Shown here in pieces: positions 9,853-53,914 of a stretch of DNA of 61,822 nucleotides. The DNA comes from a virus (lineage: Duplodnaviria; Caudoviricetes): the IMG/VR virus record IMGVR_UViG_3300036832_000756, positions 1-61,822 of that record; one strand, 5' to 3'. The notes beneath the pieces are model-generated. The model was not told the origin of the DNA, made no database searches, and saw only the letters and a program-made list of their open reading frames with translations. The stretch's first letter is position 1. Every line of letters starts with the position of its first letter. The position numbers and the translations under genes are program-made.

Positions 9853-10239
9853 ATGGGAGCCGCGAACGTACCGATGGAGATCGACCAGGGCGAGGACTGG
9901 ACCACCACGATCGTCTACACCGACGACTTCGATGAGCCGTACAACGTCATCGCTCCGTGTCGGATGGACATCAAGAACCAGCAGGGTGCCGTCCAGCTCT
10001 CGCTTGCCACACCTGATGAAGAAGTACTCCAGGGGACGATCCCGCAGATCGGGGTGAGCGAGGACATCGGGCTGATCCAGCTGCACATCGAGGACTCGGT
10101 GACCGCCAGCCTGATGCCCGGGGTCTACAAGTACGACCTGTTCGTGACCGTGAACGACGGTGACGAGTACGCCGGCAACCAGATCCAGCGGCTGGTGGCC
10201 GGCACGGTCACCGTGAACCAGAGAGTGACTCAGCTATGA
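9853..10239 (+). CDS. virion structural protein (BppU N-terminal-like)
   Basis: IDQGEDW...GVYKYDL...LVAGTVTV beta-sandwich pattern. Confidence 0.6.
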   Translation: MGAANVPMEIDQGEDWTTTIVYTDDFDEPYNVIAPCRMDIKNQQGAVQLSLATPDEEVLQGTIPQIGVSEDIGLIQLHIEDSVTASLMPGVYKYDLFVTVNDGDEYAGNQIQRLVAGTVTVNQRVTQL

Positions 10240-10541
10240 GCCGTTCCGCCTTCGGCATCGAGCACGGGGAGATCACCAAGGCCCGCACGGCCAGGCAGCA
10301 GGAGTCCGCCAACGACCTGCAGCGTGGGGCCCGGATCGGGGTCGGTGCCGCCGGAGCGGCCGGAGTCGCCACCGGGGTCAAGGCCGCCCGGCGCACCAAG
10401 AGCACCAAGAAGGCCGTCCGAGCCGCCGTCGGGGTCGGCCGGGGTGGGCGTACCTTCATGGCGACCGCTGCTCCGGCCGCGATCACCGGCTACGTCGGCG
10501 TGGCCGGGGCCAAGGCGCTGCGGCGCAGGAAGCAGGGCTAG
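10236..10541 (+). CDS. SAFG-tag basic Gly/Ala-rich protein 1 (putative internal virion cargo)
   Basis: MSRSAFGIEHGEITK leader; GVGAAGAAGVATG hydrophobic segment; Lys/Arg-rich. Confidence 0.75.
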   Translation: MSRSAFGIEHGEITKARTARQQESANDLQRGARIGVGAAGAAGVATGVKAARRTKSTKKAVRAAVGVGRGGRTFMATAAPAAITGYVGVAGAKALRRRKQG

Positions 10542-10544
10542 GTC

Positions 10545-11234
10545 ATGGGCAACGTGGTCAAGCTGGTCAACGGCGGGTCGATCCAGGTCCGCACCGGAGT
10601 GATCCAGGGCATCGGCCCGGTCGGGCCTCGGGGCGCGGTGGGACCGAACGGGCCGCAGGGCGACCAGGGACCGACCGGCGACACCGGCGCGATGGGCCAG
10701 ATCCTCCAGGTCGGCGCTCGCACGGACGTGAGCACCACCAACGCCCTGGCCGCGGCCACCGACACGGTGATCTCCTTCGGCAACATCAAGTACGACGACC
10801 CCTCCTGCATCTACACCTCGGCCAACATCCTGCTGCGCGACATCGGGGACTACATGCTCAACGTCTACCTGCGCTTCGACGACGCGGCGGCCGGTGGGCG
10901 TGAGGTGTGGTTCGCCAGCCAGACCGCGGGCCTGATCGCCCGGACCTCGAGGGTCAGCGCGCCGGGTGCCCCGTTCTACGTGGACCTGTCCATGCCCTAC
11001 CGGGTGCTGGCTCCCGGCAACGAGTACCTCAACGTGCTGGCCCGCTCCGCCCAGGCGCTGAACATCTCGGCGGGCTCACTCGGTGTGACCCGGATCGGCT
11101 CCGGGCCGGTCGGTGCCCAGGGCCCGATCGGTCCACAGGGACCTCCGGGAGCCACCGGGGGCAAGGGCGACACCGGTTCACCGGGCGCGCCGGGCGGTGT
11201 GTACACCAGCTACGCACAGCTGGTCGGGCACTAG
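10545..11234 (+). CDS. collagen-repeat minor tail/fibre protein
   Basis: Two Gly-X-Y tracts flanking a beta domain. Confidence 0.75.
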   Translation: MGNVVKLVNGGSIQVRTGVIQGIGPVGPRGAVGPNGPQGDQGPTGDTGAMGQILQVGARTDVSTTNALAAATDTVISFGNIKYDDPSCIYTSANILLRDIGDYMLNVYLRFDDAAAGGREVWFASQTAGLIARTSRVSAPGAPFYVDLSMPYRVLAPGNEYLNVLARSAQALNISAGSLGVTRIGSGPVGAQGPIGPQGPPGATGGKGDTGSPGAPGGVYTSYAQLVGH

Positions 11235-11240
11235 CCTGGG

Positions 11241-11858
11241 TCAGTGCTGGACGGGCGTGGGCGAGTCGTCACGGTTCACCACAACCCGAGCTGAGTCACC
11301 GAGCTCGAAGATGTGGTTGCCCGCGGTGTCGCGGAGCAGGCGCACCCACTCCGGGTGCCGGTGGCTGTTCAGCGGCGGTCCGACGTAGGCCCGCTCCCGG
11401 TCGGCGAAGATATTGTTCCCGGCGTGGCTGTCCCGGATGGTGACCTGACCGTCCTCACCGTTGGCCGCGATGTTGTTCTTGGAGGTCACGTCGCAGATCA
11501 GCACGTTGTGGCTGTGCTGGATCTTCACGTTGTTGCCCACCAGCGGGTCGAACTTGCAGCCCGGGGTGGAGATGATCACGGTCCCGGTCACACCTCTGGC
11601 CATGATGTTGCGGGCCACGTTGGTCCGGATGGTCAGGTTGGCAGCGCCCTTCTTGGCGTGCACCCCGCCGGTGACGGTGGCGTCAGCAGCCAGGGTGCAG
11701 CTCGAGCCCGCCTGGATGGTGACGTTGTGAACCTTGCCATGGATGGTGGTGTCGCAGTTGCGGATGTTGGGCCCATGGCCGGCGGCCTGGGCAGGAGCGG
11801 TTACGGACAGAGCAGCGAGCGTCAGTGCGCTCACACCCCCCAGCAGTGTCTTCAACAT
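11241..11858 (-). CDS. secreted beta-helix-like protein (moron)
   Basis: Signal peptide MLKTLLGGVSALTLAALSVTAPAQA-A; repeated (V/A)xNNI units; own leaderless -10 TACGGT 6 nt before ATG 11858. Confidence 0.75.
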   Translation of the reverse strand: MLKTLLGGVSALTLAALSVTAPAQAAGHGPNIRNCDTTIHGKVHNVTIQAGSSCTLAADATVTGGVHAKKGAANLTIRTNVARNIMARGVTGTVIISTPGCKFDPLVGNNVKIQHSHNVLICDVTSKNNIAANGEDGQVTIRDSHAGNNIFADRERAYVGPPLNSHRHPEWVRLLRDTAGNHIFELGDSARVVVNRDDSPTPVQH

Positions 11859-11916
11859 CCCGGCACCGTACCCACAGTGCCCGGACATACAGGAATCCCA
11901 CCGCTAGCCTCATCCC

Positions 11917-13737: not shown

Positions 13738-13748
13738 GGGGTGGAGTC

Positions 13749-15812
13749 ATAGCGATCGACTGGGGGGCCTACGACTCATCCGGCGGGCTGGGGGTCCGGG
13801 TCGGGATCGACGTGTCGGTGGAGACCGCGATCGGGCACAACGAGTCCAGCTGCACCTTCACCGTGGACTACTACACCCAGAACCAGCACAGCTGGAGCGA
13901 CTCCCAGACCCTGAACCTGACCGGTGCGATCGGGGGCTCGATCGGGTTCTCCAACAACTCCGGTGACGGTGCCGTGGTCAAGCGCGGGTCGCGGACCTAC
14001 GTCTACAGCTACGCAGGCAACGAGTACGGCAGCTCGCCCGGGAACCGGACCTTCGGGGCCACCCTGGTCGGGGCCTTCAACGGGATCACCCCCTCCAACA
14101 GCCACACCTCCGCGATCACCGCGCGCCCGTACGGAGCGCCGGCCAAGCCCACCCAGACCGCGGTGGACCGCTACTCCAACGACACCGCTCACATCACCTG
14201 GAACAACCAAGACACGGTGGGCGAGCCGTACGGCAACATCTACGTCGAGCGCTACGCCTACGGGCACGGCACCTGGAACCGGATCACCACGCTGCCCGGC
14301 GGGGCCACCGCCTACACCGATGGCGGTGCGATCCCGAACCGGAAGTACACCTACCGGGTCCAGGCCCACAACAGCGTCGATGACTCGGGCTACGACCAGA
14401 CCGGGATCATCTGGACCACGCCGGCGGCACCCAGCGGGATCGGTCGAGCCACCTCGGGTGCCAACCAGGTGGTCACCTGGACCACCAACGCCGACTACCC
14501 CGAGGCCGAGAACGTGGTCTACCACGCCGCGAACGGGGTCTGGGACGGCTCCGCGCTGGCCGTGGTCGGCGGCCAGAGCTACACCCACGTCGCGCCGGAC
14601 CCGACCAAGCGGCACAAGTACCGGGTCCGGACCAGGACCACCTCGGGTGCGACCCTGTACTCCGACTACTCCCCGGAGACCAGCGAGTCGGCGCTGACCA
14701 CCTCGGCCCCGAACCCGCCGACCAACCTGTCCCCGGCCGGCGATGTCACGGTCAACGAGGCCGCCGTGGTCGTGCTCAGCTGGACCTACAACCCCGCGGA
14801 CGGGAGCGCGCAGACCGCCTTCACCATCCAGCATCGGGAGTACGGGACGACCGCGTGGACCGTGGTGAGCCCGCCCGGCTCCTCGGCGAAGACGTACAGC
14901 CTGCCGGCCAACACCTACGCCAAGGACAAGCGGGTCGAGTGGCAGGTCCAGACCGCCGGTGCCAGCGGCACGATGAGCGCCTTCTCGGCCTCGGCCACCT
15001 TCTTCACCCAGGCCACGGTGACCACCACGATCACCAAGTACCCGCTGTTCATGGACATCATCACCGGTCAGATCGAGGCCGACTCCCAGGGCCTGCCAGG
15101 TCCGACCGCGGATGCCGCGGACTGGTACTCCAGCTCCGCCCAGGCGATCGCGAACGGCGGGGGCATCAGTCAGGTCACCGGGCTGGCGCTGGTGGGTGCG
15201 GCTCCGACCTGGGGGCACCTGAGCGGGAGCAACGTGGTGATCGACAAGGCGGGCACCTATCTGGTCACCGGCTCGGTCACCTTCGCCGCCAACACCGCCG
15301 GACGCCGGCTCGCGGCGATCGTCGTCAACGGAACCGAGGTACGCCGCCAGGATGTCGGTAGCGCCACCGTCGCCTCCAACCCCGCCACGGTGACGGTCTC
15401 GACGCTGGTCGAGGCGGCCCTGAACGACACGATCGGACTGTGGGCCTTCCAGAACGGTGCTGCGAGCAACCTGCTGGGTAACCCCGGCCACGACCTGCAG
15501 ATCGCCCCGCTGGTCACGGTCTCCACCGGCGGCGGAGGTGGCGGTGGGTCCGGTGGCGCGCCCACTGGCGCTGCGGGCGGGGATCTGATCGGCTCCTACC
15601 CGAACCCCTTGATCGCGAGCGCCACCTTCAGCTTCGCCACGGCCAGCACGCTGTGGTCGTGCCCGCACAACCTGGGCAAGCAGGAGGTCCTGGTCTACAC
15701 CCAGGACAACAGCAACGTCGAGCAGTTCGGCGATGTGACCAGGGTCAACGCCAACCTGGTGGAGATCCGCTGGTACAACCCGATGACCGGCCTGGTCCGG
15801 ATCAGCAAGTAG
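13749..15812 (+). CDS. fibronectin type III-repeat tail protein (probable ATA start)
   Basis: PAKP..ITW..YTYRVQAHN FN3 units; frame reads (M)AIDWGAYD from ATA 13749. Confidence 0.75.
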   Translation: MAIDWGAYDSSGGLGVRVGIDVSVETAIGHNESSCTFTVDYYTQNQHSWSDSQTLNLTGAIGGSIGFSNNSGDGAVVKRGSRTYVYSYAGNEYGSSPGNRTFGATLVGAFNGITPSNSHTSAITARPYGAPAKPTQTAVDRYSNDTAHITWNNQDTVGEPYGNIYVERYAYGHGTWNRITTLPGGATAYTDGGAIPNRKYTYRVQAHNSVDDSGYDQTGIIWTTPAAPSGIGRATSGANQVVTWTTNADYPEAENVVYHAANGVWDGSALAVVGGQSYTHVAPDPTKRHKYRVRTRTTSGATLYSDYSPETSESALTTSAPNPPTNLSPAGDVTVNEAAVVVLSWTYNPADGSAQTAFTIQHREYGTTAWTVVSPPGSSAKTYSLPANTYAKDKRVEWQVQTAGASGTMSAFSASATFFTQATVTTTITKYPLFMDIITGQIEADSQGLPGPTADAADWYSSSAQAIANGGGISQVTGLALVGAAPTWGHLSGSNVVIDKAGTYLVTGSVTFAANTAGRRLAAIVVNGTEVRRQDVGSATVASNPATVTVSTLVEAALNDTIGLWAFQNGAASNLLGNPGHDLQIAPLVTVSTGGGGGGGSGGAPTGAAGGDLIGSYPNPLIASATFSFATASTLWSCPHNLGKQEVLVYTQDNSNVEQFGDVTRVNANLVEIRWYNPMTGLVRISK

Positions 15813-15821
15813 GAGACGCTC

Positions 15822-17752: not shown

Positions 17753-17801
17753 GCGTGCTGGCCGTGACACGGATGAGACGATCAAGACACAGGAGGTAGC
17801 C

Positions 17802-18131: not shown

Positions 18132-18142
18132 GCGGAGCCTCG

Positions 18143-19270: not shown

Positions 19271-19291
19271 CCAACCGAGAAGGGAACCAAG

Positions 19292-19654: not shown

Positions 19655-19657
19655 GTC

Positions 19658-20352: not shown

Positions 20353-20363
20353 GGAGCCCCGAG

Positions 20364-20612: not shown

Positions 20613-20614
20613 CC

Positions 20615-20929
20615 ATGCCCATCGGGGTCACCGTCACGGGGTGCTTCACGCGCAACGATCGTCCGGTCCAGGGCCTGGTCCGGTTCGTACCGGAGCGGCT
20701 CTGGGTGATCGAGGGTGGGATCACCTGGGCCTGCCTGGCACCGATGGTGCTGCTGGACGGCGGTGGCCGGTTCGAGGTCAAGCTGACCCCCACCGACGCC
20801 GACAGCGTGCCCTGGTGGTACATCGTGGAGACCCCGGTCCGGGCCTGGCGGTTCCGGGTCTACAAGGGCCGGGATACCGTCGGCCTGAAGGAGCTGCTGG
20901 GTGAGCATCATCCTCGGCCGCGGCCCTAA
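20615..20929 (+). CDS. hypothetical protein (tail-protein N-terminal-like domain)
   Basis: VTVTG...GLVRFVP...LDGGGRFEVKL...WWYIVE. Confidence 0.55.
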   Translation: MPIGVTVTGCFTRNDRPVQGLVRFVPERLWVIEGGITWACLAPMVLLDGGGRFEVKLTPTDADSVPWWYIVETPVRAWRFRVYKGRDTVGLKELLGEHHPRPRP

Positions 20930-22403: not shown

Positions 22404-22430
22404 GGGTGACAGCCTCGGGAGACTGAGGGT

Positions 22431-27300: not shown

Positions 27301-28034
27301 CCAAGCCCTACCGGTTCCCCGACGAGAGCAAGGCCTATCGCCCCGAGGCCACGACCGCCGAGCGGCAGGCCGAGCTGAAGCGGATCGGAGCGAACGCGGT
27401 CGGGGTGGTCAGCCTCAAGCCGGTGGCGTCGATGAGCGATGCCGAGCTGCAGGCCGAGGTGGCGGGGGTGGCCGGGGTCCGGCGGAAGCTGGGCAGCCTG
27501 GAGGGTGCTCCCGACTTCGAGGACATGAAGACGCTGCTCACCGGGATCAACCGGGACTCGCCCACCCTGGCAAGCGTGTTCCGGGACGCGACGAACGACC
27601 CGAAGGGGATGGACGACTACCTGGAGATGGTCCACCGGACCAGAGCGGTCAACCAGGCGGTGCCGAGCGCGGAGCGTGGTGCGGCTCCGGCGCAGGAGGA
27701 GGTGGTCCACAACCCGATCACCGAGAAGGAGAACACCGTCAAGCCGCTGCTGGAGAAGATGGAGCGGATCAAGTATCTGACCGACCACACCATGAGGCTC
27801 CATGCCGAGGGCACTCCCGAGCGCAAGCGGCTGCAGCACCTGCGCGACGACCTCGGGCTGATCGAGGACGAGGACGGCACCGGAGCCGACGAGCTGATCG
27901 GCATGTCGGACGCCCATCCGGAGGCGGTCGATCTGATCCTGCACGCCCTGCACACCGGTGATGTGCAGGACTGGCAACCGGCACCGGAGCCGGAGCGGGT
28001 ACCGGTACCGCGTAGTGGTCCGATCCTGTCGTGA
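24321..28034 (+). CDS. large putative internal head (poly)protein with degenerate JAB/MPN-like domain
   Basis: 1237 aa between portal and MuF; MPYASKAQRGYLHAHPE N-motif, HPRGG motif, several hydrophobic-x-K sites. Confidence 0.7.
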   Translation: MPYASKAQRGYLHAHPEITDKKGHPVAAKWDAEIRRRKRVAKAKAPGWLQPLAIGTAGGALANQLPSFEEQARLRENRRRRKSAAKANVKKNYSPPVWPDDGYFNARAAQQAYDLVMKMDDDTAEMFTTIVVGDILEGDIEANQRTLQKHLNEVVAKRITDLKRATLRAVSKSGGDSAEQVAFAQALAVLERLVSKADDDFKWDPKAHPRGGVNPGWFRSSVSHTQQKPLHPKTAETIGIKRHPAHQDMNDKQRAQYQDEYRQLKGFLDQAYQASPNPGDTKIQLHFRDHDGTQYAEEHPGTRPKPKMLDPRERTLVGMSAQPAGLTLGGAAFGLTSALGGSMSPGVMGGLNTAGQKLPDFAENWTKAGSGANSNERLYNRLETGSGLLRDLTPNGSKANLAGHVGNFVGSYGPQAEAVIGPPARRTAYRYRGTEKKPDPQMVAAYETAIRNSMGNRGRNVEDDAITRRAQNRAIEAKRREVADATKTPVEAVRLTADERVEAMNSARSERRAASTSPNPTFTEQQGAAAEIAAYLGRSADDPRGGAAPRRGLYNLQLASGNTPPSEGVILDRNGKIVTQAIGYGDDHYLPFNLKNLKGLKGGSYIRNRSVGGLTSEDIYTGLVSGARSVTVVSRSGTFTMEFEPDFRGGRRHNDKARRMTRRYEQILDAVQSEQVERQGIMPETRRAIADKVRAEAENNPLMGPNVIRAEVNRRIEEYKANPEIEPEDEEYLDFMTNYQTAGMALDSPERNAIKSNLRNQMAAEKELKFRLNGDGYAAALEGLREQFPYYIKVRSEPTKEGKFEREPDLGYVEPDKIRPTAAAAGLFGAKRQHQYQSSPGKISAAEADYAGGAPRRAAPAPAAPAAEAPEGETTATPEGTAEKTKAAKPETLDPVSQAGYADKAVTVQQAIKSEVAFAPGSVVPPWVRMDEDQFRAHLRDKDNLTRFDQWISQHQEMLASDPEVDKTLLGYHQAAGRIGQKMYEPALNQEWRPKPYRFPDESKAYRPEATTAERQAELKRIGANAVGVVSLKPVASMSDAELQAEVAGVAGVRRKLGSLEGAPDFEDMKTLLTGINRDSPTLASVFRDATNDPKGMDDYLEMVHRTRAVNQAVPSAERGAAPAQEEVVHNPITEKENTVKPLLEKMERIKYLTDHTMRLHAEGTPERKRLQHLRDDLGLIEDEDGTGADELIGMSDAHPEAVDLILHALHTGDVQDWQPAPEPERVPVPRSGPILS

Positions 28035-30202
28035 CCGCCGTCCCGGTCCCCCGTCCTACCCCGGCGGTCGAGCTCCGGTTCCACCCCACCGACCTGGACG
28101 AGGGGACGCTGCGGGAGGCGCTGCGCCCCCTGGGCTCACCGAGCGAGGCGATCGAGGCCGCGCTGATGACGGCCCGGCTGATGGTGGTCACCCAGGCCAA
28201 GGCCGAGGTGGCTGCGCTGACCGGGGAGATGAGCGCGGCCAAGCTGATCGGAATCGCGGACCTGGCCTGGCAGGTCTATGCGCCCACCTTCCTGCGGTCG
28301 CTGGGCCCGGTCTTCGCCGAGGAGTACCTGCGCACGATGCGGGCGGCCGGGGCCGGGGACATCCCGATGGCCACGGTCTACGCCCTGGCCGAGCAGCACG
28401 CCGCCCGGATGGGCACCCACTTCCACGAGTCCTCCCGGGACGCGCTGGGGCAGGGGTTCAACACCTTCGTGAACCGGAGGATGACCGAGCGGGTGGCCGC
28501 CGACCGGGTGCTGGACGGCTACGGGCTGACCGCCCGGGGGATGGCCGGGTACACCTCGCGGTCGCTGGACAAGGCCAACACGGTCACCCCGCTGAAGCTG
28601 AAGGAGCGGGTGGGCGACTACATCGGCACCTCGGTCCGCCGGCGGTCCAGGCTCTTCGCCACCCAGGAGCAGCACAACATCAGCCAGCAGGCCCGGCAGG
28701 TCGCCTGGATGTGGATGCAGGACAAGGGCCAGATCACGGCGGGGGCGGAGAAGGTCTGGATCACCGCCCGCGACGAGCGGACCTGCGACCAGTGCGCGCC
28801 GATGCACGGGGTCCGGGTGCCGGTCACCGAGCGGTTCACGCTGCCCAACGGCACCCAGGTCTACGTGCCGGGGATGCACCCGAACTGCCGGTGCACCGCC
28901 GAGCTGCTGGACCACCCGTGGATGGCCACGGTGGACAAGCGGGGCGTGCTGAGCAAGGCCGAGACCTGGAACCCCAAGGAGCACCCGCGTGGCGGCGACT
29001 CGAGGAACCCCGGCCGGTTCAGCGCCAAGGCTCGCTCATCGCCAACCAGGCCACCGGTGACCGAGCAGCAGGACTACTCCGCGTTCCAGCGGTTCCTGGA
29101 CACCGCTGCAGAGCAGATCGAGGAGGAGGTCAAGCCCAAGGTGGTGATCGATGACCGGCCCAAGGTGGTGATCAGCGATCGTTCCCCGGTGGTGATCAAC
29201 GACCGCCCGCCCCCGGTGGTGGTCAACGACCGTCCTCAGAGGCTCACCATCAACGACCCGGCGGCCCCGAAGGAGAAGCTGACGATCACCAACGTCGCCG
29301 ACGAGCGGGTCAAGCCGGTCTTCCGGCCCAGCCCGAAGCAGCGGCTCCTGATCAACGAGGGCACCGCGAAGACGATCATCCGGGGCCTGGCTGAGGTGAA
29401 GGCCAAGCTGCCACCGCCGCCCAGCCGGCCGCACAAGGACACGATCAGGCTGGACGGACCCGGTGGTCCCGGGCCGGTGTACTACATCGCCACCCCGTAT
29501 GAGATGGCCGAGAGTGAGCACTACCGGGACGGCCTGATCGAGCTGAACACCGAGATGGAGTTCGGCCAGGAGCAGACCCATGGCGACGAGACCGGGGAGG
29601 ACGCGATGGCGCGAGCCGCCCGGGAGTACTTCAATGAGCAGTTGACCAGCGAGTCGGATGCGATGTGGGAGAACGAGGAGAACTACCTCGAGCGGACCGA
29701 CGAGCACGGCACATCGATCCGGGCGCTGATCCCCGAGGAACACCTCTACGACATCGTGGCGGCAGCAGCTTGGAACGACCCGGGCGGTCCGGGCGACGAC
29801 CACATGAGGATCGACTGGACGATCGACAGCCCCGGATCCTCATCGCACGGGGAGCCGGTGGCCACCGAGTACATGAGGTACTCCGAGGTCGCCCAGGAGA
29901 TGAAGCTGAGTCCTGAGTCCTTCGTGCTCAGCGTCCTGGTGCTCACCGAGGGTCACAACTCCGACCTGGGCAAGACCCGCCAGCTCGCCACCGGGACCAG
30001 GTACGGCGATGAGGTCTGGACCGGCACCGGTCTGTACCGGCTCGAGCCGATGACCGGGGTGATCCAGGAGGCCAACGGTCCCCCGATCCGGTTCATGCAT
30101 CTGGTTCCGGAGGGCATCGAGCCCTACGACGTGATCCCGCCGGGCTACGTCCCGCCCGAGGATGACGAGCCGACACCCGGCAGGCCGCCGTATGGGCTGT
30201 GA
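28031..30202 (+). CDS. MuF-like (SPP1 gp7-like) head morphogenesis protein with C-terminal extension
   Basis: KVWITARDERTCDQC...HPNCRC MuF signature. Confidence 0.85.
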   Translation: MTAVPVPRPTPAVELRFHPTDLDEGTLREALRPLGSPSEAIEAALMTARLMVVTQAKAEVAALTGEMSAAKLIGIADLAWQVYAPTFLRSLGPVFAEEYLRTMRAAGAGDIPMATVYALAEQHAARMGTHFHESSRDALGQGFNTFVNRRMTERVAADRVLDGYGLTARGMAGYTSRSLDKANTVTPLKLKERVGDYIGTSVRRRSRLFATQEQHNISQQARQVAWMWMQDKGQITAGAEKVWITARDERTCDQCAPMHGVRVPVTERFTLPNGTQVYVPGMHPNCRCTAELLDHPWMATVDKRGVLSKAETWNPKEHPRGGDSRNPGRFSAKARSSPTRPPVTEQQDYSAFQRFLDTAAEQIEEEVKPKVVIDDRPKVVISDRSPVVINDRPPPVVVNDRPQRLTINDPAAPKEKLTITNVADERVKPVFRPSPKQRLLINEGTAKTIIRGLAEVKAKLPPPPSRPHKDTIRLDGPGGPGPVYYIATPYEMAESEHYRDGLIELNTEMEFGQEQTHGDETGEDAMARAAREYFNEQLTSESDAMWENEENYLERTDEHGTSIRALIPEEHLYDIVAAAAWNDPGGPGDDHMRIDWTIDSPGSSSHGEPVATEYMRYSEVAQEMKLSPESFVLSVLVLTEGHNSDLGKTRQLATGTRYGDEVWTGTGLYRLEPMTGVIQEANGPPIRFMHLVPEGIEPYDVIPPGYVPPEDDEPTPGRPPYGL

Positions 30203-30228
30203 GTAGACCGGATCGGGATCATGAGGGT

Positions 30229-31335
30229 ATGAGCACCGACCAGGAGCTGTATGCCACCAACGAGACCTTCCGCGAGGTGGCCGACCTGTTGTTCGGCGGT
30301 GGCGGTGACCAGCTGCTGGCCGGCATCTCCAAGGCCAACCCGGGCCAGTCCGACCTGGCCACCAGCGACCGGAAGAAGCGCGCCCTCACCGCCGGGCTGA
30401 GTGCGGTCGGGGCCACCGCCGGCGCGGCCGGCCTGGGCTACGCCGCCCACAAGACCGGCGGGGCCTACCGGGCCGCCCGGTTCGGCGAGACCACGCTGAA
30501 GGCGGCGAAGACGGCCCGGGCCGCTGGGAACGCGGCCCCCAAGCTCCAGCCGGTGATGTCGCGACCACGTGCGGTCGGGCAGGCGATCAAGCACGAGAAG
30601 CTCGGCACCGCGCTGGTCCCGCTCGAGGTGGCCGGTCTGGGCGGCGAGATCATGTCCACCAAGATCCTGCACGGGGACACCAAGCGCAGCTCACCGAAGA
30701 AGCCGGTGATCAAGCGGCTGAAGGGTGGCGGCCTGGTCAGGAAGGACATCACCGAGATCCCCGAGGCCGGGCAGCTGCCCAGGACCAAGGGCCAGCTGAC
30801 CCGGGCCGTGGTGACCAACCCCAAGGTGCAGGCCAAGGGCCTGGAGTACACCAAGAAGGGAGCCGGCGCGCTGAAGAAGCTCCCGAGCAAGGTGAAGACG
30901 GTGAACACCTCCAAGCGGCTGGAGCCGGTCGATGTGGTCTGGTCCGGGGAGTTCGCCAAGGCTGACGCCGACAAGCAGCAGCTGTTCGGCTGGGCCTCGG
31001 TGGTCGAGGTGGACGGCGAGCCCGTGGTGGACCTGCAGGGCGACGTGATCACCGCCGAGGAGATGGAGAAGGCGGGCTACTCCTACGTGATGAAGTCCCG
31101 CAAGGGCGGGGACATGCACCTGCGGGACAACTGGGAGCCGATCCAGAAGTCGGAGATGATCGAGTCCTTCATCGTCACCGACGACAAGCGCCAGGCGATG
31201 GGGCTGCCGGACTCGGTGCCCACCGGCTGGTGGGTCGGGTTCCAGGTCCAGGACCCCCAGGTCTGGGCGGACGTGAAGGCCGGGAAGCGGACCGGGTTCT
31301 CCATCCATGGCACCGGCAAGAGGACTCCGGCATGA
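30229..31335 (+). CDS. XkdF-like prohead serine protease with Gly/Ala-rich basic N-terminal extension
   Basis: FGWASV, VDLQGD, GDMH, GWWVGF, TGFSIHG; leaderless -10 GATCAT favours ATG 30229 over 30199. Confidence 0.85.
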   Translation: MSTDQELYATNETFREVADLLFGGGGDQLLAGISKANPGQSDLATSDRKKRALTAGLSAVGATAGAAGLGYAAHKTGGAYRAARFGETTLKAAKTARAAGNAAPKLQPVMSRPRAVGQAIKHEKLGTALVPLEVAGLGGEIMSTKILHGDTKRSSPKKPVIKRLKGGGLVRKDITEIPEAGQLPRTKGQLTRAVVTNPKVQAKGLEYTKKGAGALKKLPSKVKTVNTSKRLEPVDVVWSGEFAKADADKQQLFGWASVVEVDGEPVVDLQGDVITAEEMEKAGYSYVMKSRKGGDMHLRDNWEPIQKSEMIESFIVTDDKRQAMGLPDSVPTGWWVGFQVQDPQVWADVKAGKRTGFSIHGTGKRTPA

Positions 31336-32183
31336 CCATCTCCAAGATGAGCGACACCGAGCTGCGGCACCGGCGCAAGGTCCAGGGCAACATCGCCCGG
31401 ACCACCTCGACCCTGGGCCTGAGCGGGCTCGGGATCACCGGGGCCGCCCTGGCGGCCCGGAAGTCTCCCGGCGCGCTGAAGGCGATGGGCAAGATCCCCA
31501 AGGTCGGCGCGAAGCTGGGCAAGGACCCGAAGATCGCCTCGGAGAAGCTGAAGAACACCGCCCTGACCACGGGCATCGTCTCCGGCGGCATCGGCGGTGT
31601 CGGCGGGTTCAACCAGGCCTCGATCTACTCAGCAGAGTCCAAGCGGAAGAGGAAGCCAGCCATGCCCGTTGCCAAGTCACGAGGGATCGAGCCCACCACC
31701 GCCGGCGAGGTCGGCGTGGCCAAGAACTACGAGGATCTGGTCAGGAAGGAGTGGTCGGCCAACGCCTCCAAGTTCGACTCCGAGCGCTCCCGGATGAAGC
31801 GCTCCCAGGGCTACGAGGACGTGGGCACCGCGGCCACCGGCGGCCTGGCGGCGGGTGCTGCGGTCAAGGGAGCCCAGGCCGGGCGCAAGATCATGGCGAA
31901 CCGAACCCCGGGCCAGCTGAAGGCCCGGCACCTGCCGTCGGTGAAGGCGGTCCAGGCCGGGCGCAAGGCGGCGGCGGTCAAGCACGGCAAGGTCGGGGCC
32001 GGGCTGCTGGCCGCCTCCACGGCCACCGGAGCGGCCACGCTCGCGGTGAAGAACCGGAACAAGTCCAAGTCCTGGTCCCCCTACTCCAAGCGGGACACGA
32101 CCAGCGCGTTCGGGGTGGACCACGAGCCGGTAGCCAAGGTGTTCAAGGCGATGAGTGGACACCACCGTGAGACTGATCAGTAG
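31332..32183 (+). CDS. SAFG-tag basic Gly/Ala-rich protein 2 (tag at C-terminus)
   Basis: ATGA overlap; four hydrophobic Gly/Ala segments; C-terminal SAFGVDHEPVAK. Confidence 0.78.
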   Translation: MTISKMSDTELRHRRKVQGNIARTTSTLGLSGLGITGAALAARKSPGALKAMGKIPKVGAKLGKDPKIASEKLKNTALTTGIVSGGIGGVGGFNQASIYSAESKRKRKPAMPVAKSRGIEPTTAGEVGVAKNYEDLVRKEWSANASKFDSERSRMKRSQGYEDVGTAATGGLAAGAAVKGAQAGRKIMANRTPGQLKARHLPSVKAVQAGRKAAAVKHGKVGAGLLAASTATGAATLAVKNRNKSKSWSPYSKRDTTSAFGVDHEPVAKVFKAMSGHHRETDQ

Positions 32184-32194
32184 AGGTTGATGAC

Positions 32195-33007
32195 ATGCCA
32201 CGACGGAACAACTTGACCGACATGGAGATCGATGAGATCTCCACGGTTGACAAGACCGCGAACCAGCTCTCGAGGTTCGTCATCGCGAAGCGGGCTCCTG
32301 AGGAGGATGAGATGCCCCAGATCTACAACCAGCAGGGTCAGCCGCTGAAGGAGGACGACCTGGAGTTCGGCGACATCGTGTTCGATGACGACGGACAGGC
32401 CTACGAGTACGTCGAGGACGCCGGTGAGGAGATCCCGGAGGAGGAGCGACAGGAGGAGATGGCTGCCGTCGGCAAGTCCGCCTTCTTCGAGCCCGGTCAG
32501 CCCAGCCAGGGCACGTTCGCGGCCTCGGTGATGGAGGAGCTCTCCAAGGCCTTCAGCGACGACGACCGGGACAAGGTGATCGCCAAGGCGCTCGGCCGGG
32601 TCGAGGAGCTGGAGAAGGCGCAGAACGAGGCGGCCAGGATCGCCAAGTCCGAGCGCGACCTCCGCCTGACCCGTGAGTACGTCTCCAAGGCCGCGGAGTA
32701 CAACCTGCCCGTCGCGCCCGACGAGCTCGGCCCGGTGCTCTACCGGATGGCCGAGACGATGAGCTACGACGACTGCGCCGTGATCGCCAAGTGCCTGGAG
32801 ACCGCCGGCAACATCCTCTACGAGGAGGTCGGCTACCAGGGCGGCGGCGACAACTCCGACATCTACTCCCAGGTCGAGGCCCACGCTCTCGACACGTTCG
32901 GCAAGGCCGAGGACTTCAACCAGGTCGATGCCATCAACAAGGTGTTCGACGCCAACCCGGACGCCTACGACGAGTACCTGGCCGCGCAGCGCATGAACGG
33001 TCGATGA
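32195..33007 (+). CDS. capsid scaffolding protein (N-terminal protease-strand motif)
   Basis: Acidic and helical, precedes decoration/MCP; EISTVDKTAN N-motif; many hydrophobic-x-K sites. Confidence 0.78.
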   Translation: MPRRNNLTDMEIDEISTVDKTANQLSRFVIAKRAPEEDEMPQIYNQQGQPLKEDDLEFGDIVFDDDGQAYEYVEDAGEEIPEEERQEEMAAVGKSAFFEPGQPSQGTFAASVMEELSKAFSDDDRDKVIAKALGRVEELEKAQNEAARIAKSERDLRLTREYVSKAAEYNLPVAPDELGPVLYRMAETMSYDDCAVIAKCLETAGNILYEEVGYQGGGDNSDIYSQVEAHALDTFGKAEDFNQVDAINKVFDANPDAYDEYLAAQRMNGR

Positions 33008-33026
33008 GGAAAGGTAGGGAAGCTCG

Positions 33027-33428
33027 ATGGCTTACGAGGAGAGCCTGCGGTCGATCACGCTGAATGCGGATTCGTCCATCGGCATCTACACGGGCGTACC
33101 GGGTGCACCGGGCTCCCCGGACCCGCACGGAGGCAAGCAGTACCACTTCGTGAAGGTGACCGGAGTCCATCAGTGCGGGCTGGGCGACGGAACCGGACCC
33201 TGTATCGGGGTGCTGCAGAACAAGCCCCAGGGACCAGGCCAGGCTGCCACGGTGGGATTCCACGGTGTCTCCAAGGTGGTCTGCGACGTGCCGGTCACTG
33301 CCGGGACCAAGATCCAGGTCAGTGCCGACGGCCAGGCCACCGGAGCCGGTGCCACCGCTGTCGTCGGCATCGCACTGTCCACCACCGTCAACGCTGGAGA
33401 ACTCGTCAACGTTCTCCTGACGATCTGA
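33027..33428 (+). CDS. capsid decoration/cement protein
   Basis: GVLQNKP...GVSKV...VVGIAL...GELVNVLL; between scaffold and MCP. Confidence 0.78.
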   Translation: MAYEESLRSITLNADSSIGIYTGVPGAPGSPDPHGGKQYHFVKVTGVHQCGLGDGTGPCIGVLQNKPQGPGQAATVGFHGVSKVVCDVPVTAGTKIQVSADGQATGAGATAVVGIALSTTVNAGELVNVLLTI

Positions 33429-33441
33429 GAGGAGAGAAGCC

Positions 33442-34440
33442 ATGCCGAACCCCACTCAGAGCGATCTCCACGTCAACGTGCCGCTGACCAACATCAGCAT
33501 CGCCTACATGCAGGACAAGGCGACGTTCATCGCGGACAAGGTGTTCCCGCGGGTGCCGGTCCAGAAGCAGTCGGACATGTACTGGAAGTACTCCAAGTCC
33601 GACTGGCGCAGGACCGACGCGCAGAAGCGCGCGCCGGGCACCGAGTCGGCTGGTGTCGGCTGGAAGCTCGACACCGGGCAGTACTTCGCCGAGGTCTGGG
33701 CCGTCCACAAGGACATCGATGACCAGGTGCGGGCCAACGCCGACAGCAACTGGCGGCTGGACTCCGACGCCACCGCCTTCGTCACCAACCAGCTCCTGCT
33801 CCGCCGGGACCTGGACTGGAACGACAAGTTCTTCAAGCCCGGCCAGTGGGGCACCGACCTCACCGGCGTGACCGGGACCGTGGCCGCGGGGCAGTTCCTG
33901 CAGTGGAGCGACCCGAACTCCGACCCGATCGTGCAGCTGACCGACCTGCAGACCAACTTCGTGGAGCAGTCCGGCCGCAAGGCCAACACGCTGGTCCTCG
34001 GAGCCCGGACGGTCACCCAGCTGAAGAACCACCCGGACATCATCGACCGGATCAAGTACACGCAGAAGGGCGTGGTCACCACCGACCTGCTCGCCTCGCT
34101 GTTCGACGTGGAGAAGATCCTGGTCTCCTACGCCTCGGTGTCCGACGTGTCCGAGATCAACGACGCCAAGGCCCAGGACGCCGCGGCGACGTACCGGTTC
34201 ATGTCCAACTCCAAGTCGGCGCTGCTCTGCTACACCCCGAGCTCGCCGTCGCTGATGACTCCCGCCGCGGGGTACACCTTCACCTGGAACGGCTACCTGG
34301 CCGGCAACTCCTTCGGGATCCGGATGAAGAACTTCCGGATGGAGTGGATCGAGGCAGACCGCATCGAGGGCGAGATGACCTACGACATGCGGGTCATCGC
34401 CAAGGACATGGGCATCTTCATGGCCAGCTGCGTGGCATAG
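33442..34440 (+). CDS. major capsid protein
   Basis: PLTNISIAY, FIADKVFPRVPV, HPDIIDRIKY; strong RBS; position. Confidence 0.9.
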   Translation: MPNPTQSDLHVNVPLTNISIAYMQDKATFIADKVFPRVPVQKQSDMYWKYSKSDWRRTDAQKRAPGTESAGVGWKLDTGQYFAEVWAVHKDIDDQVRANADSNWRLDSDATAFVTNQLLLRRDLDWNDKFFKPGQWGTDLTGVTGTVAAGQFLQWSDPNSDPIVQLTDLQTNFVEQSGRKANTLVLGARTVTQLKNHPDIIDRIKYTQKGVVTTDLLASLFDVEKILVSYASVSDVSEINDAKAQDAAATYRFMSNSKSALLCYTPSSPSLMTPAAGYTFTWNGYLAGNSFGIRMKNFRMEWIEADRIEGEMTYDMRVIAKDMGIFMASCVA

Positions 34441-34453
34441 CGCAGACTGGTTC

Positions 34454-34490
34454 GAGGTGGGTCGTGGGTATGACCCGCGGCCCATCTCTT
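34454..34490 (+). terminator. hairpin after the major capsid gene
   Basis: GAGGTGGGTCGTGGGT-ATG-ACCCGCGGCCCATCTC-TT; 16-bp stem with G-U pairs on the + strand. Confidence 0.65.
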
Positions 34491-34504
34491 ACGTAGGAGG
34501 ACCG

Positions 34505-34849
34505 ATGTACTCAGCGTTCGGAGTGGACCACGGCGAGGGCATCTCCAAGCTCAGCCAGGAGACCAAGGCCGGCATCCTGGGCCCGATCTACACCGCGGGA
34601 GCAGCGAAGCAGGGCAAGGGCGGGGCGGCCTACCGCACCCAGTACGGGCATGGTCTGGCCGGAGCCGCAGTGGGAGGTGGGGCCGGGGCCGGTATCGGAG
34701 CACTGGCCGGACGTGCTGCGGGCAAGGGCAAGGCCGGGCTCGGGGCCGCCATCGGTGGCGGGGCGCTGAGCGCCGTCGGCAGCTTCCACGGCAACAAGGC
34801 CGGGTACAAGGCAGCGAAGAAGAAGGGCTACCTCAGGGAGGGAAGCTGA
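34505..34849 (+). CDS. SAFG-tag glycine-zipper protein 3
   Basis: AGGAGG RBS; MYSAFGVDHGEGISK; GAAVGGGAGAGIGALAG zipper. Confidence 0.8.
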   Translation: MYSAFGVDHGEGISKLSQETKAGILGPIYTAGAAKQGKGGAAYRTQYGHGLAGAAVGGGAGAGIGALAGRAAGKGKAGLGAAIGGGALSAVGSFHGNKAGYKAAKKKGYLREGS

Positions 34850-35421
34850 TGGGAAGTCCACTGCTCAGCAACGACCGAGTTGGCTTCGTGGTCTCCAAGC
34901 CGTTCACCTCCCGCGAGAAGGAGTACGCGGTCGGGGACGACTTCGACCAGACCGACGCCCGCAACATCGAGGTCCTGGTCCGGGCCCGGTACGTGATCCC
35001 GGTGGTGGAGGACCTCAAGGACCGGCCGAAGTACTGGTACAAGGAGGTCCGGCTGAAGTCCGACGTGCTGGCCCGGCTGTTCCGGGAGAACGTCCAGCTG
35101 CGGATGCACCACGAGCCGGACTCCGACGACGTGGTGAACATGGAGCGGCTGGTCCGCCCGGAGACCACCCCGACTGCGGAGGAGCTGGCCCAGGAGAACG
35201 GGACCTCCGAGGAGAACGACGAGAGCACCTCGGAGGCGATGGCCGAGCAGCAGGAGGAGGCTGCGGCAGCCTCTGAGTCGGTGCACACCGAGACCTACGA
35301 CCCGACCTACCACACGGTGAACGAGGTCAACGCCTACCTGGCCTCGCATCCCGAGGAGCGTGAGCGGGTGCTCGAGGTCGAGCAGGCCGGCAAGGCGCGG
35401 AAGGGGATCCTGGAGTCATGA
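34849..35421 (+). CDS. hypothetical virion-associated protein
   Basis: TGATG coupling; C-terminal YDP..HTVNEVNAYL...VLEVEQAGKARKGIL domain. Confidence 0.72.
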   Translation: MGSPLLSNDRVGFVVSKPFTSREKEYAVGDDFDQTDARNIEVLVRARYVIPVVEDLKDRPKYWYKEVRLKSDVLARLFRENVQLRMHHEPDSDDVVNMERLVRPETTPTAEELAQENGTSEENDESTSEAMAEQQEEAAAASESVHTETYDPTYHTVNEVNAYLASHPEERERVLEVEQAGKARKGILES

Positions 35422-35807
35422 GAAGCGCGTTCGGGGTCGAGCACGACTACTCCGAGGTCGAGAAGGCCAACCCGTTGGCGGCCCTGCGTACCTTCGGAGC
35501 CACTGCCCGGAGCACAAGCGCCGGCGTCGGAACAGCGATCGGTGCTGCTACCCATAAGGCCGGCGGTGCCCTCGTCGGCCGGAGTGCCAATGTGGGAGCC
35601 AAGCTCCGGGCCCGGCCCGGGGTAGCCAACTTCGGCCGGTCGGCCGGAGTGGGTGCGGCCGGGCTCGGACAGCGCGGCGGTGGTGGGCTGAAGCGTCTGG
35701 GCGGAGGGATGATGAAACGTCCTGGCCTGACCGGCGGAGCTGCCATCGGTGGAGTGGCTGCGGCACCCACCGCCTACGGCGTGTCCAGTACCCGTCGGCG
35801 GTCCTGA
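35418..35807 (+). CDS. SAFG-tag basic Gly/Ala-rich protein 4
   Basis: MRSAFGVEHDYSEVEK leader, then a Gly/Ala/Arg-rich body with no acidic residues. Confidence 0.78.
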   Translation: MRSAFGVEHDYSEVEKANPLAALRTFGATARSTSAGVGTAIGAATHKAGGALVGRSANVGAKLRARPGVANFGRSAGVGAAGLGQRGGGGLKRLGGGMMKRPGLTGGAAIGGVAAAPTAYGVSSTRRRS

Positions 35808-35810
35808 GCG

Positions 35811-36326
35811 ATGGCCGGCACCTACTCCTACGACGGGGCCGGGACCACCGACAAGGACACCCTGCGGTTCCTGATCCAGGACACCGACCCCCATGCCGTC
35901 GGGGAGTGGCAGGTCACCAACGAGGAGGTCCAGTGGGCCTACGACACCTGGTTCCCGGTCCAGCCGTCGCTGTACTACGTGGCGGCGACGCTCGCTGATA
36001 CCATCGCGGCGCGTTACGCACGCGAGGCGTCCTACTCGGCCGACGGGGTGAGCATCTCGCTCGGTCCGGTCGGGGATCAGTATCGGGCGCTGGCTGCCTC
36101 CCTGCGAGAGCAGCACAAGGCGCTGCTCGTCGGGGGCATCCCCGATGTCGGCGGGATGACCCCCGGCGAGCAGCTGGAGCCGGACACCAAGCCCTTCTCC
36201 TTCGGCAAGGGCATGCACGACGACATCGAGGCCGGTCGCCAGGACTACGGCGGGATCTACCCGCCCGACGCCTACTACCTCAACCCGGCCGGCGTGCCCG
36301 ACTACGAACGGATCGTGGAGCCATGA
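35811..36326 (+). CDS. head-to-tail adaptor
   Basis: DTLRFLIQDTD...YYVAA...SISL..QYRALA pattern. Confidence 0.78.
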   Translation: MAGTYSYDGAGTTDKDTLRFLIQDTDPHAVGEWQVTNEEVQWAYDTWFPVQPSLYYVAATLADTIAARYAREASYSADGVSISLGPVGDQYRALAASLREQHKALLVGGIPDVGGMTPGEQLEPDTKPFSFGKGMHDDIEAGRQDYGGIYPPDAYYLNPAGVPDYERIVEP

Positions 36327-37036
36327 ACGATGGACTCTCGGCTTTCGGTGTGGACCACGGCGGGGTCTCCAAGCGCGACGACGAGCGCGCCAAGCACTAC
36401 GGCCGGATGGCGGCGGCCACCGGCACCCTGGGTGGTACGGCCGCCGCCGTCGGTGCCGGAGCCGGCGCGATCGGGCTGGCCGAGTCCAAGGGCCACGACC
36501 CGGTGGGGTTCCTGCCGCAGCGCTCGGCACGGCACAAGCCGGCCAGCCACGCAGTGAAGATGCGGGTGCTCAAGCCGCTGTCTCGCGACCACGGCAGGCA
36601 GGCCGCCGTCCTGGGCGGGCTGAGCGCGGGCACCCTGGCCATCTCCGGTGCCTACAAGCACAAGCAGAACAAGGCACTGGCCAAACGCGACCTGGGGCGC
36701 AAGGCGACCGACGCCGGGCTGGCCGCGGGCACGACCGGGGCGGCCGGAGCCACCGGGTACTACGGGGTGCGCCAGGGCAAGGTGTACGCCCAGGGTGCCT
36801 ACGCCGGTGGCAAGACGGCCTCCTACGCCCATCACGACATCCGCAGCGCCAAGCAGGGCCGGTACAAGGCCACCGCCGCCCATCTGGCGCACCTGAAGAG
36901 CACCCGGAACACCGGTCTGCGGATGGCGGCCACCAAGGGCGCGGGCGCGGTCGGCACCGGGGTCGCCGGTGCTGCCGGTGCCGCGGGCCTGTTCGAGCTG
37001 GGCCGGAACGCAGCGAGGAAACGGAAGCCGTCGTGA
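36323..37036 (+). CDS. SAFG-tag basic Gly/Ala-rich protein 5 (two modules)
   Basis: MNDGLSAFGVDHGGVSK-RD; internal LAK-RD; four hydrophobic segments. Confidence 0.78.
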   Translation: MNDGLSAFGVDHGGVSKRDDERAKHYGRMAAATGTLGGTAAAVGAGAGAIGLAESKGHDPVGFLPQRSARHKPASHAVKMRVLKPLSRDHGRQAAVLGGLSAGTLAISGAYKHKQNKALAKRDLGRKATDAGLAAGTTGAAGATGYYGVRQGKVYAQGAYAGGKTASYAHHDIRSAKQGRYKATAAHLAHLKSTRNTGLRMAATKGAGAVGTGVAGAAGAAGLFELGRNAARKRKPS

Positions 37037-37479
37037 GCGAGCTGAACGACCTGCTGGCCCTGCTCCCGGACAACAGCAGCGGGGAGATCAGCGCTGCCGA
37101 CCTGCGCACCATCGTCACCGAGCTGTACAACGACGCGAACTCGGTCTTCAACCAGTACGCCTACAAGTGGGACTCCGGCACCACTCCGGCCTCCGGCAAG
37201 CTCAACCTGGCGGCGTGGACTGCCGACACCGACACCACCCTGTACATCAACGATGTCAGCGCCGGCAGCATCGCGCTTCCCTTCGGGTTGGTGGACACCG
37301 ACCCGAAGTTCACGCTGGCCCGTGACGACGGCACCGCCAAGGCCAGCGGCACGGTGATCGGCCCTTCGGTGCCACACAGCGGCTACCACGAGGTGCCTGT
37401 GCATCTGGACACCACCACCGGGACCTCCCCGACCAACAACACTCCGCTCACGCTCTCACTGATGGTGACGTTGACATGA
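37033..37479 (+). CDS. hypothetical virion protein
   Basis: LLALLPDNSSGEISAADLR N-terminal motif; GTGA overlap. Confidence 0.7.
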   Translation: MSELNDLLALLPDNSSGEISAADLRTIVTELYNDANSVFNQYAYKWDSGTTPASGKLNLAAWTADTDTTLYINDVSAGSIALPFGLVDTDPKFTLARDDGTAKASGTVIGPSVPHSGYHEVPVHLDTTTGTSPTNNTPLTLSLMVTLT

Positions 37480-37955
37480 GCGAGTTCAGCACCGACTTCG
37501 CCCCGGCCTTCGCCGCGGTCCCCCTGTCGTCTGCTGCGACCCACCGCTCGCCGATCACTGCCGAGGCCCGTGCTTATGTCAGGTCACGGGCCACCCTGGT
37601 GATGGAGCACACCTGCCAGATCACCCGTGGAGCCACCCCGGAGGGCTACGACGAGAACACCCTGGTCTTCACCGCCGCGGGCATCGCCGAGCTGGTCTAC
37701 GAGGGACCGTGCCGGATCTGGGAGCTGTCCTCGGCCCAGTCGCTGCTGGTCGGCGAGGCGGAGATCTACCAACAGCCCACCCAGATGTCCATCCCTTGGG
37801 ACGAATCGGCGCTCATCAGGCGATACGACCAGGTGCTGGTCACCACTGCGCCGGAGGACTCCCAGCTGGTCGGGGAGCGGTTCGAGATCCAGACGATCGC
37901 CAAGGGAGGCGAGCTCCGGGCCTCTCGGCGCTTCGAGATCACCGGGGTGATGTGA
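37476..37955 (+). CDS. head-to-tail stopper (DUF6093-like)
   Basis: MEHTCQITR...VYEGPCRI...LVGERFEI. Confidence 0.72.
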   Translation: MSEFSTDFAPAFAAVPLSSAATHRSPITAEARAYVRSRATLVMEHTCQITRGATPEGYDENTLVFTAAGIAELVYEGPCRIWELSSAQSLLVGEAEIYQQPTQMSIPWDESALIRRYDQVLVTTAPEDSQLVGERFEIQTIAKGGELRASRRFEITGVM

Positions 37956-38257
37956 TGCTCTCCGCCGATGGACGTTCCGCCTTCGGTGTGGAGCACGGTG
38001 AGGTCTCCAAGGCGTTCCGGCGGCTCGGTCCCCAGCTACGGGCGACCCTGAAGGACAGCAAGGGCGTCAACATGGACGAACGAGCCCGACACAACTACGC
38101 GATGTTCCGTCAGGTGGCCGGAAACCTCGGTCGAGGCAGCCGTGGTAAGCCTGACCAGGCTGCCATCGAGCTACAGCGACAGTTCAAGGGGGCTGCACAC
38201 GCATCGGTGACCGCGGCTGGAAACATCAGCAGACGGAAGGGCCGGTACCTGCCATGA
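37955..38257 (+). CDS. SAFG-tag basic protein 6
   Basis: TGATG coupling; MLSADGRSAFGVEHGEVSK-A; Arg/Lys-rich. Confidence 0.75.
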   Translation: MLSADGRSAFGVEHGEVSKAFRRLGPQLRATLKDSKGVNMDERARHNYAMFRQVAGNLGRGSRGKPDQAAIELQRQFKGAAHASVTAAGNISRRKGRYLP

Positions 38258-39172: not shown

Positions 39173-39173
39173 G

Positions 39174-39347: not shown

Positions 39348-39350
39348 CCG

Positions 39351-39839: not shown

Positions 39840-39841
39840 TC

Positions 39842-53835: not shown

Positions 53836-53857
53836 GCCACTCCTTCCGTGAGAGCCC

Positions 53858-53890: not shown

Positions 53891-53914
53891 AGGTGCTTGG
53901 TTGATGCTGGGTGG

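Follow-up and report, generated by a model that had tools for sequence, protein, structure and literature searches.

What is the function of a seven-residue peptide that recurs, nearly unchanged, in six otherwise unrelated basic proteins of a single phage? The question is raised by IMGVR_UViG_3300036832_000756, an IMG/VR virus record of 61,822 bases, estimated to be 76% complete, whose whole length we call the window. The peptide, the heptad SAFG[VI][DE]H, stands at one or the other end of its carrier proteins and is accompanied by a hydrophobic-x-Lys site. Comparison with relatives suggests that heptad and site are probably the two parts of a capsid-loading propeptide similar to the capsid targeting sequence (CTS) of phage T4, in which the heptad would dock and the hydrophobic-x-Lys site would be cut by a prohead protease of the XkdF type.

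A six-frame scan places the heptad at positions 10245, 32103, 34511, 35424, 36338 and 37976, always in frame and on the plus strand, which confirms the six copies that an earlier note on this DNA had reported. The back-translated heptad pattern occurs six times in the forward and never in the reverse direction of the window, and a reversed-pattern control gives no match. The GC content at third codon positions (GC3) of the tag-carrying open reading frames (ORFs) is coding-type at 0.73–0.90, apart from 0.60 for the gene at 37955, measured only inside a longer ORF; the window itself has a GC content of about 0.64–0.71. GGAG-like sequences precede most ATG starts of the tagged genes. With the limits of all six genes set, the five N-terminal tags and the single C-terminal one described by the earlier note were recovered, as were the differing serine codons and the strongly basic bodies, whose isoelectric points (pI) lie at 10.3–12.0. 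Its description of five bodies as rich in Gly and Ala holds for four of them (G+A fraction 0.39–0.52) and fails for the 37955 gene (0.26) and the C-terminally tagged gene (0.28). The six genes are the following, where hyphens set off the heptad and a slash marks a candidate cut-site:

10236–10541, plus strand: tagged gene 1 (101 aa); propeptide MSR-SAFGIEH-GEITK (10236–10280), body of 86 aa, pI 12.0
34505–34849, plus strand: tagged gene 2 (114 aa); propeptide MY-SAFGVDH-GEGISK, body of 99 aa, pI 10.3, G+A 0.52
35418–35807, plus strand: tagged gene 3 (129 aa); propeptide MR-SAFGVEH-DYSEVEK, body of 113 aa, pI 12.0
36323–37036, plus strand: tagged gene 4 (237 aa); propeptide MNDGL-SAFGVDH-GGVSK, body of 220 aa, pI 11.0
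37955–38257, plus strand: tagged gene 5 (100 aa); propeptide MLSADGR-SAFGVEH-GEVSK, body of 81 aa, pI 11.7
31332–32183, plus strand: C-terminally tagged gene (283 aa, basic); C-terminal end ...SPYSK/RDTT-SAFGVDH-EPVAK/VFKAMSGHHRETDQ, with the tag at 32103–32123 and candidate Lys sites on both sides of it (codons 32088–32090 and 32136–32138)

The tag is widespread among relatives of this phage. Its DNA pattern was found at no fewer than 118 loci in IMG/VR, many with several in-frame copies at ORF starts, and among the matches listed, window included, a Met stands exactly two residues ahead of the Ser in 57 of 83 occurrences of SAFG[VI][DE]H. To avoid circularity, 79 viral contigs were chosen by scaffold homology alone; the tag is present in 65 of them, and all of its 194 copies lie on the coding strand. 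In five relatives (completeness at least 99% for four and 65% for one) there are 3, 4, 8, 3 and 1 copies, each set on a single strand. All seven heptad codons vary synonymously across the relatives, the Ser being encoded by both TCN and AGY, and therefore selection acts on the peptide and not on the DNA. Distant scaffold relatives (below about 47% identity, some of lower GC content) have no tag or one, and a search of 14 tag-less scaffold relatives for a substitute shared N-terminal peptide found none.

Protein databases extend this picture. A profile built from 50 tagged proteins has 235 matches in a 90%-identity database, and the 120 of these that were listed show no Pfam domain and no name beyond 'hypothetical protein'. 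Against a 50%-identity database the tagged-protein profile finds 593 representatives at E ≤ 0.001, again without a family name; in 124 of the 128 newly listed ones, the strict heptad lies within 10 residues of the N-terminus. Megablast of the window from 28000 to 40000 gave a 50-nt stretch of the capsid gene as its sole match, a literature search on the literal heptads returned no paper, and one on capsid targeting, XkdF and propeptides returned nothing on this tag. The window capsid protein is about 45% identical to homologues from Arthrobacter and from Rhizobium phages, being about equally close to both, so that the 'actinophage' of the earlier note is not established. A motif scan of the regions examined in the Arthrobacter phages Kovu and Kharcho (capsid protein 43–45% identical) revealed no tag, and the annotated head-tail block of Rhizobium phage RHph_Y60 (capsid 45%; sequence not motif-scanned) is compact and has no interleaved small genes. 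As far as these comparisons reach, the tag is a protein-level feature specific to one uncultured clade of high-GC phages, whose contigs come from samples of soil type.

How the tag is built becomes clear from 157 unique copies (scaffold-chosen set plus window), comprising 114 N-terminal, 33 C-terminal and 10 internal ones. Without exception, the 114 N-terminal tags have their first Lys 4–10 residues after the His, preceded by I/V/F-x; P3 is I in 59, V in 48 and F in 7 of them, and P2 is S in 77, E in 17, A in 8 and T in 5. For C-terminal or internal tags the arrangement is mirrored: [IVLFYM]-x-K occurs within 12 residues upstream in 40 of 44, against a background of 12.9% of windows, and the other four can be read as N-terminal tags whose start codon is not ATG. 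Seven C-terminal tags stop exactly at the His. The Lys site thus lies downstream of N-terminal and upstream of C-terminal tags, and the candidate site therefore always separates the heptad from the body. The propeptides defined in this way are 13–21 residues long with a net charge of −4 to +1. The rule extends to polyproteins, in which modules are joined as ...h-x-K/SAFG...h-x-K/, a pattern present in all 11 multi-tag proteins among the 128 examined; P0121 and P0123 have five tags each. The heptad variants SAWGIEH, NAFGV[DE]H and [NTS]PFGV[DE]H share contigs with canonical tags, and because of this coexistence covariation cannot point to a receptor.

Which enzyme might read the site? Three genes of the window bear on this question:

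30199–31335, plus strand: prohead protease candidate of the XkdF type (PF14550, 63.3 bits, cut-off 24)
32195–33007, plus strand: acidic scaffold-like protein
33442–34440, plus strand: major capsid protein without a delta domain (phrog_1005, E 1.3e-88), N-terminus MPNPTQSDLHV

Protease and scaffold are classical substrates of prohead proteases, and both contain the site. In the protease the XkdF domain is C-terminal (residues 251–375), and the long, basic N-terminal extension includes a tag-like element, LLFGGGGDQLLAGISK (30286–30333), whose last residue is K45. The consensus of this region is LLFG[GD]G..[DE]L[IV][STA]K, and the Lys at its end, K45 in the window, is one of the few positions that never vary among the 29 aligned relatives. 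D278, D282, H307, S368 and H370, likewise invariant in all 29, are candidate catalytic residues; a Foldseek comparison of the AF2 model of the protease with the PDB gave no match at E ≤ 0.001. The scaffold reads AVGK/SAFF in a disordered linker (32465–32488), within a site of the form [VIA]-G-K whose G93 and K94 are invariant in 13 of 13 sequences. Its AF2 model is helical in the C-terminal half, and the linker has a pLDDT below 50.

Two further observations concern these proteins. In the scaffold, GK is followed by SAFF in the tag-rich subclade (3–7 tags per locus), and scaffold relatives with no tag or one have GK-SFADEVRE or GK-ADLMR at this position, which could reflect co-evolution or simply shared ancestry. 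Directly after K45 the protease reads (A/M)NP.QSDL (30334–30360), copying the nearly invariant capsid N-terminus MPNPTQSDLHV (33442–33475). If the protease cleaves itself there, it would thus present a capsid-like N-arm, possibly its own route into the shell.

The bodies to which the tags are attached tell a complementary story. We assembled 112 unique mature bodies with a total of 14,724 residues. Their pI ranges from 9.8 to 12.0 (median 11.8), their net charge from +8 to +98, with a median of +14 per 100 residues, and their median G+A fraction is 0.34. BLAST sorts them into 64 clusters, including 47 singletons, and over 6216 pairs the heptad is 87% identical compared to about 9% for the bodies. 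Their common denominator is extreme positive charge together with sequence turnover. One sequence is specifically rare in them: [IVF]xK occurs at 0.49 of the shuffle expectation (66 observed, 133.8 expected, z −6.9) and [LM]xK at 0.64, and the control motifs [IVF]xR, K.[IVF], [IVF]K and G.K show observed-to-expected ratios of 1.22, 1.37, 1.00 and 1.00. Hydrophobic-x-K is not depleted in other protein groups of the window (ratios of 1.07–2.38), and the residual [IV][SE]K sites of the bodies are mostly found in long, polyprotein-like members. Such avoidance is expected if disordered bodies must survive a protease that shares their compartment and reads hydrophobic-x-Lys. Together, the orientation rule, the sites in protease and scaffold, the avoidance in bodies and the polyproteins strongly support, at the level of sequence comparison, a portable tag with a hydrophobic-x-K site as proposed earlier.

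Apart from charge, few bodies resemble anything known. A Pfam scan of 71 long tagged ORFs yielded no family, and none of the window proteins matched a glycine-zipper family (PF13441 and relatives). The body encoded at 34505 has a predicted structure that resembles glycine-zipper proteins in the Atlas (TM about 0.6, to be taken as a lead only). In P0139, a database protein of 275 aa, a perfect tag at the N-terminus, MISAFGVDHGTDVSK, is combined with a GNAT acetyltransferase domain (PF00583, E 8e-8, 33 bits), and the protein is possibly an enzyme cargo. The ParB-like look of P0129 was not confirmed.

The position of the tagged genes is equally informative. The earlier note had placed them between core virion genes, and a head block with portal, MuF, XkdF protease, scaffold, capsid, DUF6093 and gp10-like genes was indeed found; the gene at 10236 lies outside it. 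Besides those given above, the genes concerned are:

20901–22403: large terminase
22431–24320, plus strand: portal protein, Mu-like (Portal_Mu, PF06074, E 8.5e-36)
24321–28034: ORF of 1237 aa between the portal and MuF genes
28031–30202, plus strand: MuF-like head morphogenesis protein (PF04233)
33027–33428: head-fibre-like protein
35811 (position): adaptor-like gene
37476 (position): DUF6093 gene
38254 (position): HK97-gp10-like gene

Downstream of the capsid gene, tagged genes interleave with the conserved neck genes (adaptor-like, DUF6093 and HK97-gp10-like), tagged gene 5 being flanked by the latter two. Tag counts per slot of the head-neck operon show that these positions are fixed among relatives:

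Between the gene of the 34849 type and the adaptor gene: 61 tag copies
End of the gene of the C-terminally tagged family: 30 tag copies
After the protease gene: 25 tag copies
After the capsid gene: 22 tag copies
Before the gp10-like gene: 12 tag copies

Some neighbours deserve a comment of their own. The ORF at 24321–28034 has no Pfam or PHROG match; its product has an N-terminus that is basic and glycine-zipper-like, with several hydrophobic-x-K sites at residues 155–196, and may be another processed internal protein. Tagged gene 1 is directly upstream of a gene with collagen triple-helix repeats (PF01391, 10545–11234), beyond which large ORFs follow, one with an Ig-like domain; these collagen-repeat and Ig-domain ORFs upstream of the terminase gene probably encode fibre or tail proteins. 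In the Arthrobacter phages, PF14550/XkdF domains were found in the C-terminal part of genes annotated as 'RNA ligase' (Kovu gp20, 14773–15126; Kharcho gp87, 53670–54020), and Kovu gp18, annotated as 'capsid maturation protease', has a sequence that by eye looks MuF-like. The annotation may need revision.

How could these elements work together? For encapsidation, cutting protease, receptor and cargo function we infer the following sequence of events. The late head operon would make one to eight tagged proteins per genome. The heptad would bind a conserved component of the assembling prohead core, for which the XkdF protease, the inner face of the capsid protein and the scaffold are candidates, and the tagged protein would thereby be enclosed. 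Cuts after Lys by the XkdF-type protease would then follow at three places, namely the N-terminal propeptide of the protease, the scaffold linker and the junction of tag and body. The bodies set free, hypervariable, polybasic and for the most part disordered, would remain associated with the DNA. Their likeliest roles would be charge neutralisation or condensation of the DNA and co-ejection with it; a minority with glycine-zipper segments and rare enzyme cargo would complete the set. DNA-associated, co-ejected proteins are favoured because of the charge and disorder of the bodies, and the idea of a membrane channel applies at most to the glycine-zipper subset.

A bolder version of this proposal, which we regard as quite possible while stopping short of calling it probable, is that the clade possesses a universal, seven-residue address label that functions at either end of a protein, combined with a tear-off line at Lys. 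The product of any gene that acquires the label, alone or within a polyprotein, would enter the capsid and be set free inside it by the XkdF protease. That enzyme may itself act as receptor of the heptad, which resembles both the residues directly behind the scaffold cut-site (K/SAFF) and the EIS.VD motif at the scaffold N-terminus. Scaffold-like genes that lie directly or a few genes downstream of an XkdF-domain gene all start with E-[IV]-S-x-V-D-x-[PG]-A (window 32195–32300; L125 7799–8581; L126 7799–8578; L344 3074–4246; L345 3387–4490; L266 10453–11544). In the window this start is EISTVDKTAN; Kovu and Kharcho have ETSGVDHPAH, Vibrio phage PG28 has FISIVDKGAN, and Roseobacter phage RDJL6 has EISGVDVPAQ. 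There is a resemblance between this start and the tag core FGVDHG, and AF2 models the segment as disordered. Perhaps the segment serves as a docking strand and the tag mimics it.

Several points weigh against capsid loading by a T4-like propeptide. The presence of tagged proteins in virions is deduced and not observed directly, and the tagged gene at 10236 is 20 kb away from the head block. A tblastn search with the 36323 protein and the C-terminally tagged protein against 50,697 GenBank phage records returned no match, and thus no cultured phage with the tag. The tag-like segments of protease and scaffold have a pLDDT below 50 in the AF2 models; no published cleavage specificity for XkdF/PF14550 was found, cutting after Lys rests on comparison, and a different Lys-specific protease might make the cut. 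The shuffle test for depletion ignores local composition, which the controls with R and with reversed order answer only in part. Finally, targeting would be superfluous if charge alone were enough to bring such strongly basic proteins to an acidic scaffold core. The XkdF domain (residues 238–378), co-folded with the N-terminal 32 residues of one tagged protein, scored 0.00 and 0.00 without controls, which is no evidence either way.

The argument from charge belongs to the alternative that survives best, although we consider it unlikely. According to it the element is only a pro-sequence removed by the protease and has no part in targeting: its role would be to hold polybasic or glycine-zipper proteins in an inactive state or to label them as substrates, and these proteins would be drawn into the prohead by the negative charge of the scaffold or, once cleaved, act elsewhere than in the capsid. 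The scaffold is in fact very acidic, the bodies have about +14 net charges per 100 residues, and the Lys site with its avoidance in bodies speaks for exposure to a protease only, not for loading. However, a propeptide of 13–21 residues and a charge of −4 to +1 cannot mask a body charge of +8 to +98. Moreover, the C-terminal copies that end at the His or one to two residues beyond it retain an intact heptad, and this, together with 87% identity across unrelated bodies, implies that the heptad has a function apart from the cut-site.

Considerably less probable is a signal that a host system reads for sorting or cleavage, be it secretion, membrane insertion or a host protease, which would make the tagged proteins late non-virion factors for lysis, exclusion or anti-defence. 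Proteins of staphylococcal phages that copy the host L27/Prp cleavage motif set a precedent, and some bodies resemble glycine-zipper membrane proteins, a likeness that is a lead only; P0112 matches PF13441 at an E of 7e-4, below the cut-off. Yet none of 104 propeptides shows the features of a Sec or Tat signal looked for, namely a twin-arginine motif or a hydrophobic core of about eight or more residues. A sample of 120 bacterial-genome loci with the heptad pattern listed 121 in-frame AFG[VI][DE]H peptides, none of them an N-terminal tag. The same Lys site is present in the phage's own protease and scaffold, and hydrophobicity of transmembrane grade (Kyte–Doolittle mean of at least 1.6 over a 19-residue window) is reached by only 3 of 112 bodies. 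The last result also weakens the suggestion of the earlier note that the mature products are membrane-active peptides.

About as improbable, and if anything slightly more so, is the idea that the tagged proteins are not cargo at all, and that they serve as additional, disposable, scaffold-like assembly factors that are recruited by means of the tag and that the protease degrades before they are expelled. It draws on the K/SAFF of the scaffold itself and on the location of tagged genes among assembly genes. Degradation is difficult to combine with the specific avoidance of hydrophobic-x-K in the bodies, which argues for survival of the protease, and with 64 body clusters the sequences turn over far faster than the assembly proteins of this module, the capsid protein being 56–96% identical. 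Chance or a repeat at the DNA level is refuted by the strand bias of 194 to 0, the synonymous codon variation and the conserved N-terminal placement.

Capsid loading by a cleavable, T4-like propeptide thus being our preferred reading, what would it mean? To our knowledge, capsid targeting sequences have been established experimentally essentially only for T4 and its relatives, and we know of little on how other tailed phages load their internal or ejected proteins. Here, the comparison of sequences alone defines the tag and predicts the cut-site with precision, and it supplies hundreds of natural candidate cargo proteins in a group with a different protease family. If true, loading by tag and cut-site would have arisen independently, and a large set of uncharacterised injected proteins would be opened to study, which could represent a fast-evolving arsenal of polybasic proteins with occasional enzymes such as GNAT. 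It would also provide a short, transferable handle to load foreign cargo into HK97-fold capsids outside the T4 group.

Known systems share parts of this design. In encapsulins, a short terminal cargo-loading peptide directs unrelated cargo into an HK97-fold shell; unlike what is predicted for the tag described here, these peptides are not known to be cleaved off, and the shell has no portal, scaffold or protease. The L27/Prp-type motif is an N-terminal peptide found on several capsid and scaffold proteins of staphylococcal phages and removed by one protease. There, the motif mimics one from a host protein and the cutting enzyme also comes from the host, whereas none of the 121 peptides among the bacterial matches listed is a tag, and the site is shared with the phage protease. 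In the giant phages SPN3US and phiKZ, several head or ejection proteins have N-terminal propeptides that end in one protease motif and are thought to target the proteins to the prohead (PMC10052503). As far as the accessible text of this source goes, these propeptides are mostly long (111–254 residues) and no shared sequence is mentioned, in contrast to the near-invariant heptad reused here.

The closest likeness is to T4, where a short terminal propeptide, the CTS, is found on otherwise unrelated basic proteins of one phage (IPI–III and Alt) and is cut by gp21. In the accessible part of the account by PMC9026906, CTS propeptides have 10–19 residues, of which the N-terminal ones determine targeting and those at the C-terminal end processing; the CTS is common to divergent basic internal proteins, the cargo genes are poorly conserved, the gp21 protease has a propeptide of its own, and protease and scaffold are documented substrates of the prohead protease. 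Against this account, the T4 precedent invoked in the earlier note fits in detail, from the proposed two-part propeptide and the divergent basic cargo to the predicted propeptide of the protease. The differences are just as clear. The predicted cut is after Lys here and after Glu in T4; the protease matches PF14550/XkdF only and is not gp21; the sequence of the tag is unrelated to the CTS as given in that source; and the tag occurs at both N- and C-termini and, in polyproteins, as a spacer that could be excised. Genomes of these phages measure about 60–80 kb and encode a Mu-like portal, and the system is known from sequence alone. With a protease that matches PF14550 only and no resemblance to the CTS, it is therefore analogous to the T4 system and not a member of it, and would represent CTS-like loading outside the T4 group in a form that appears richer than the known kind.

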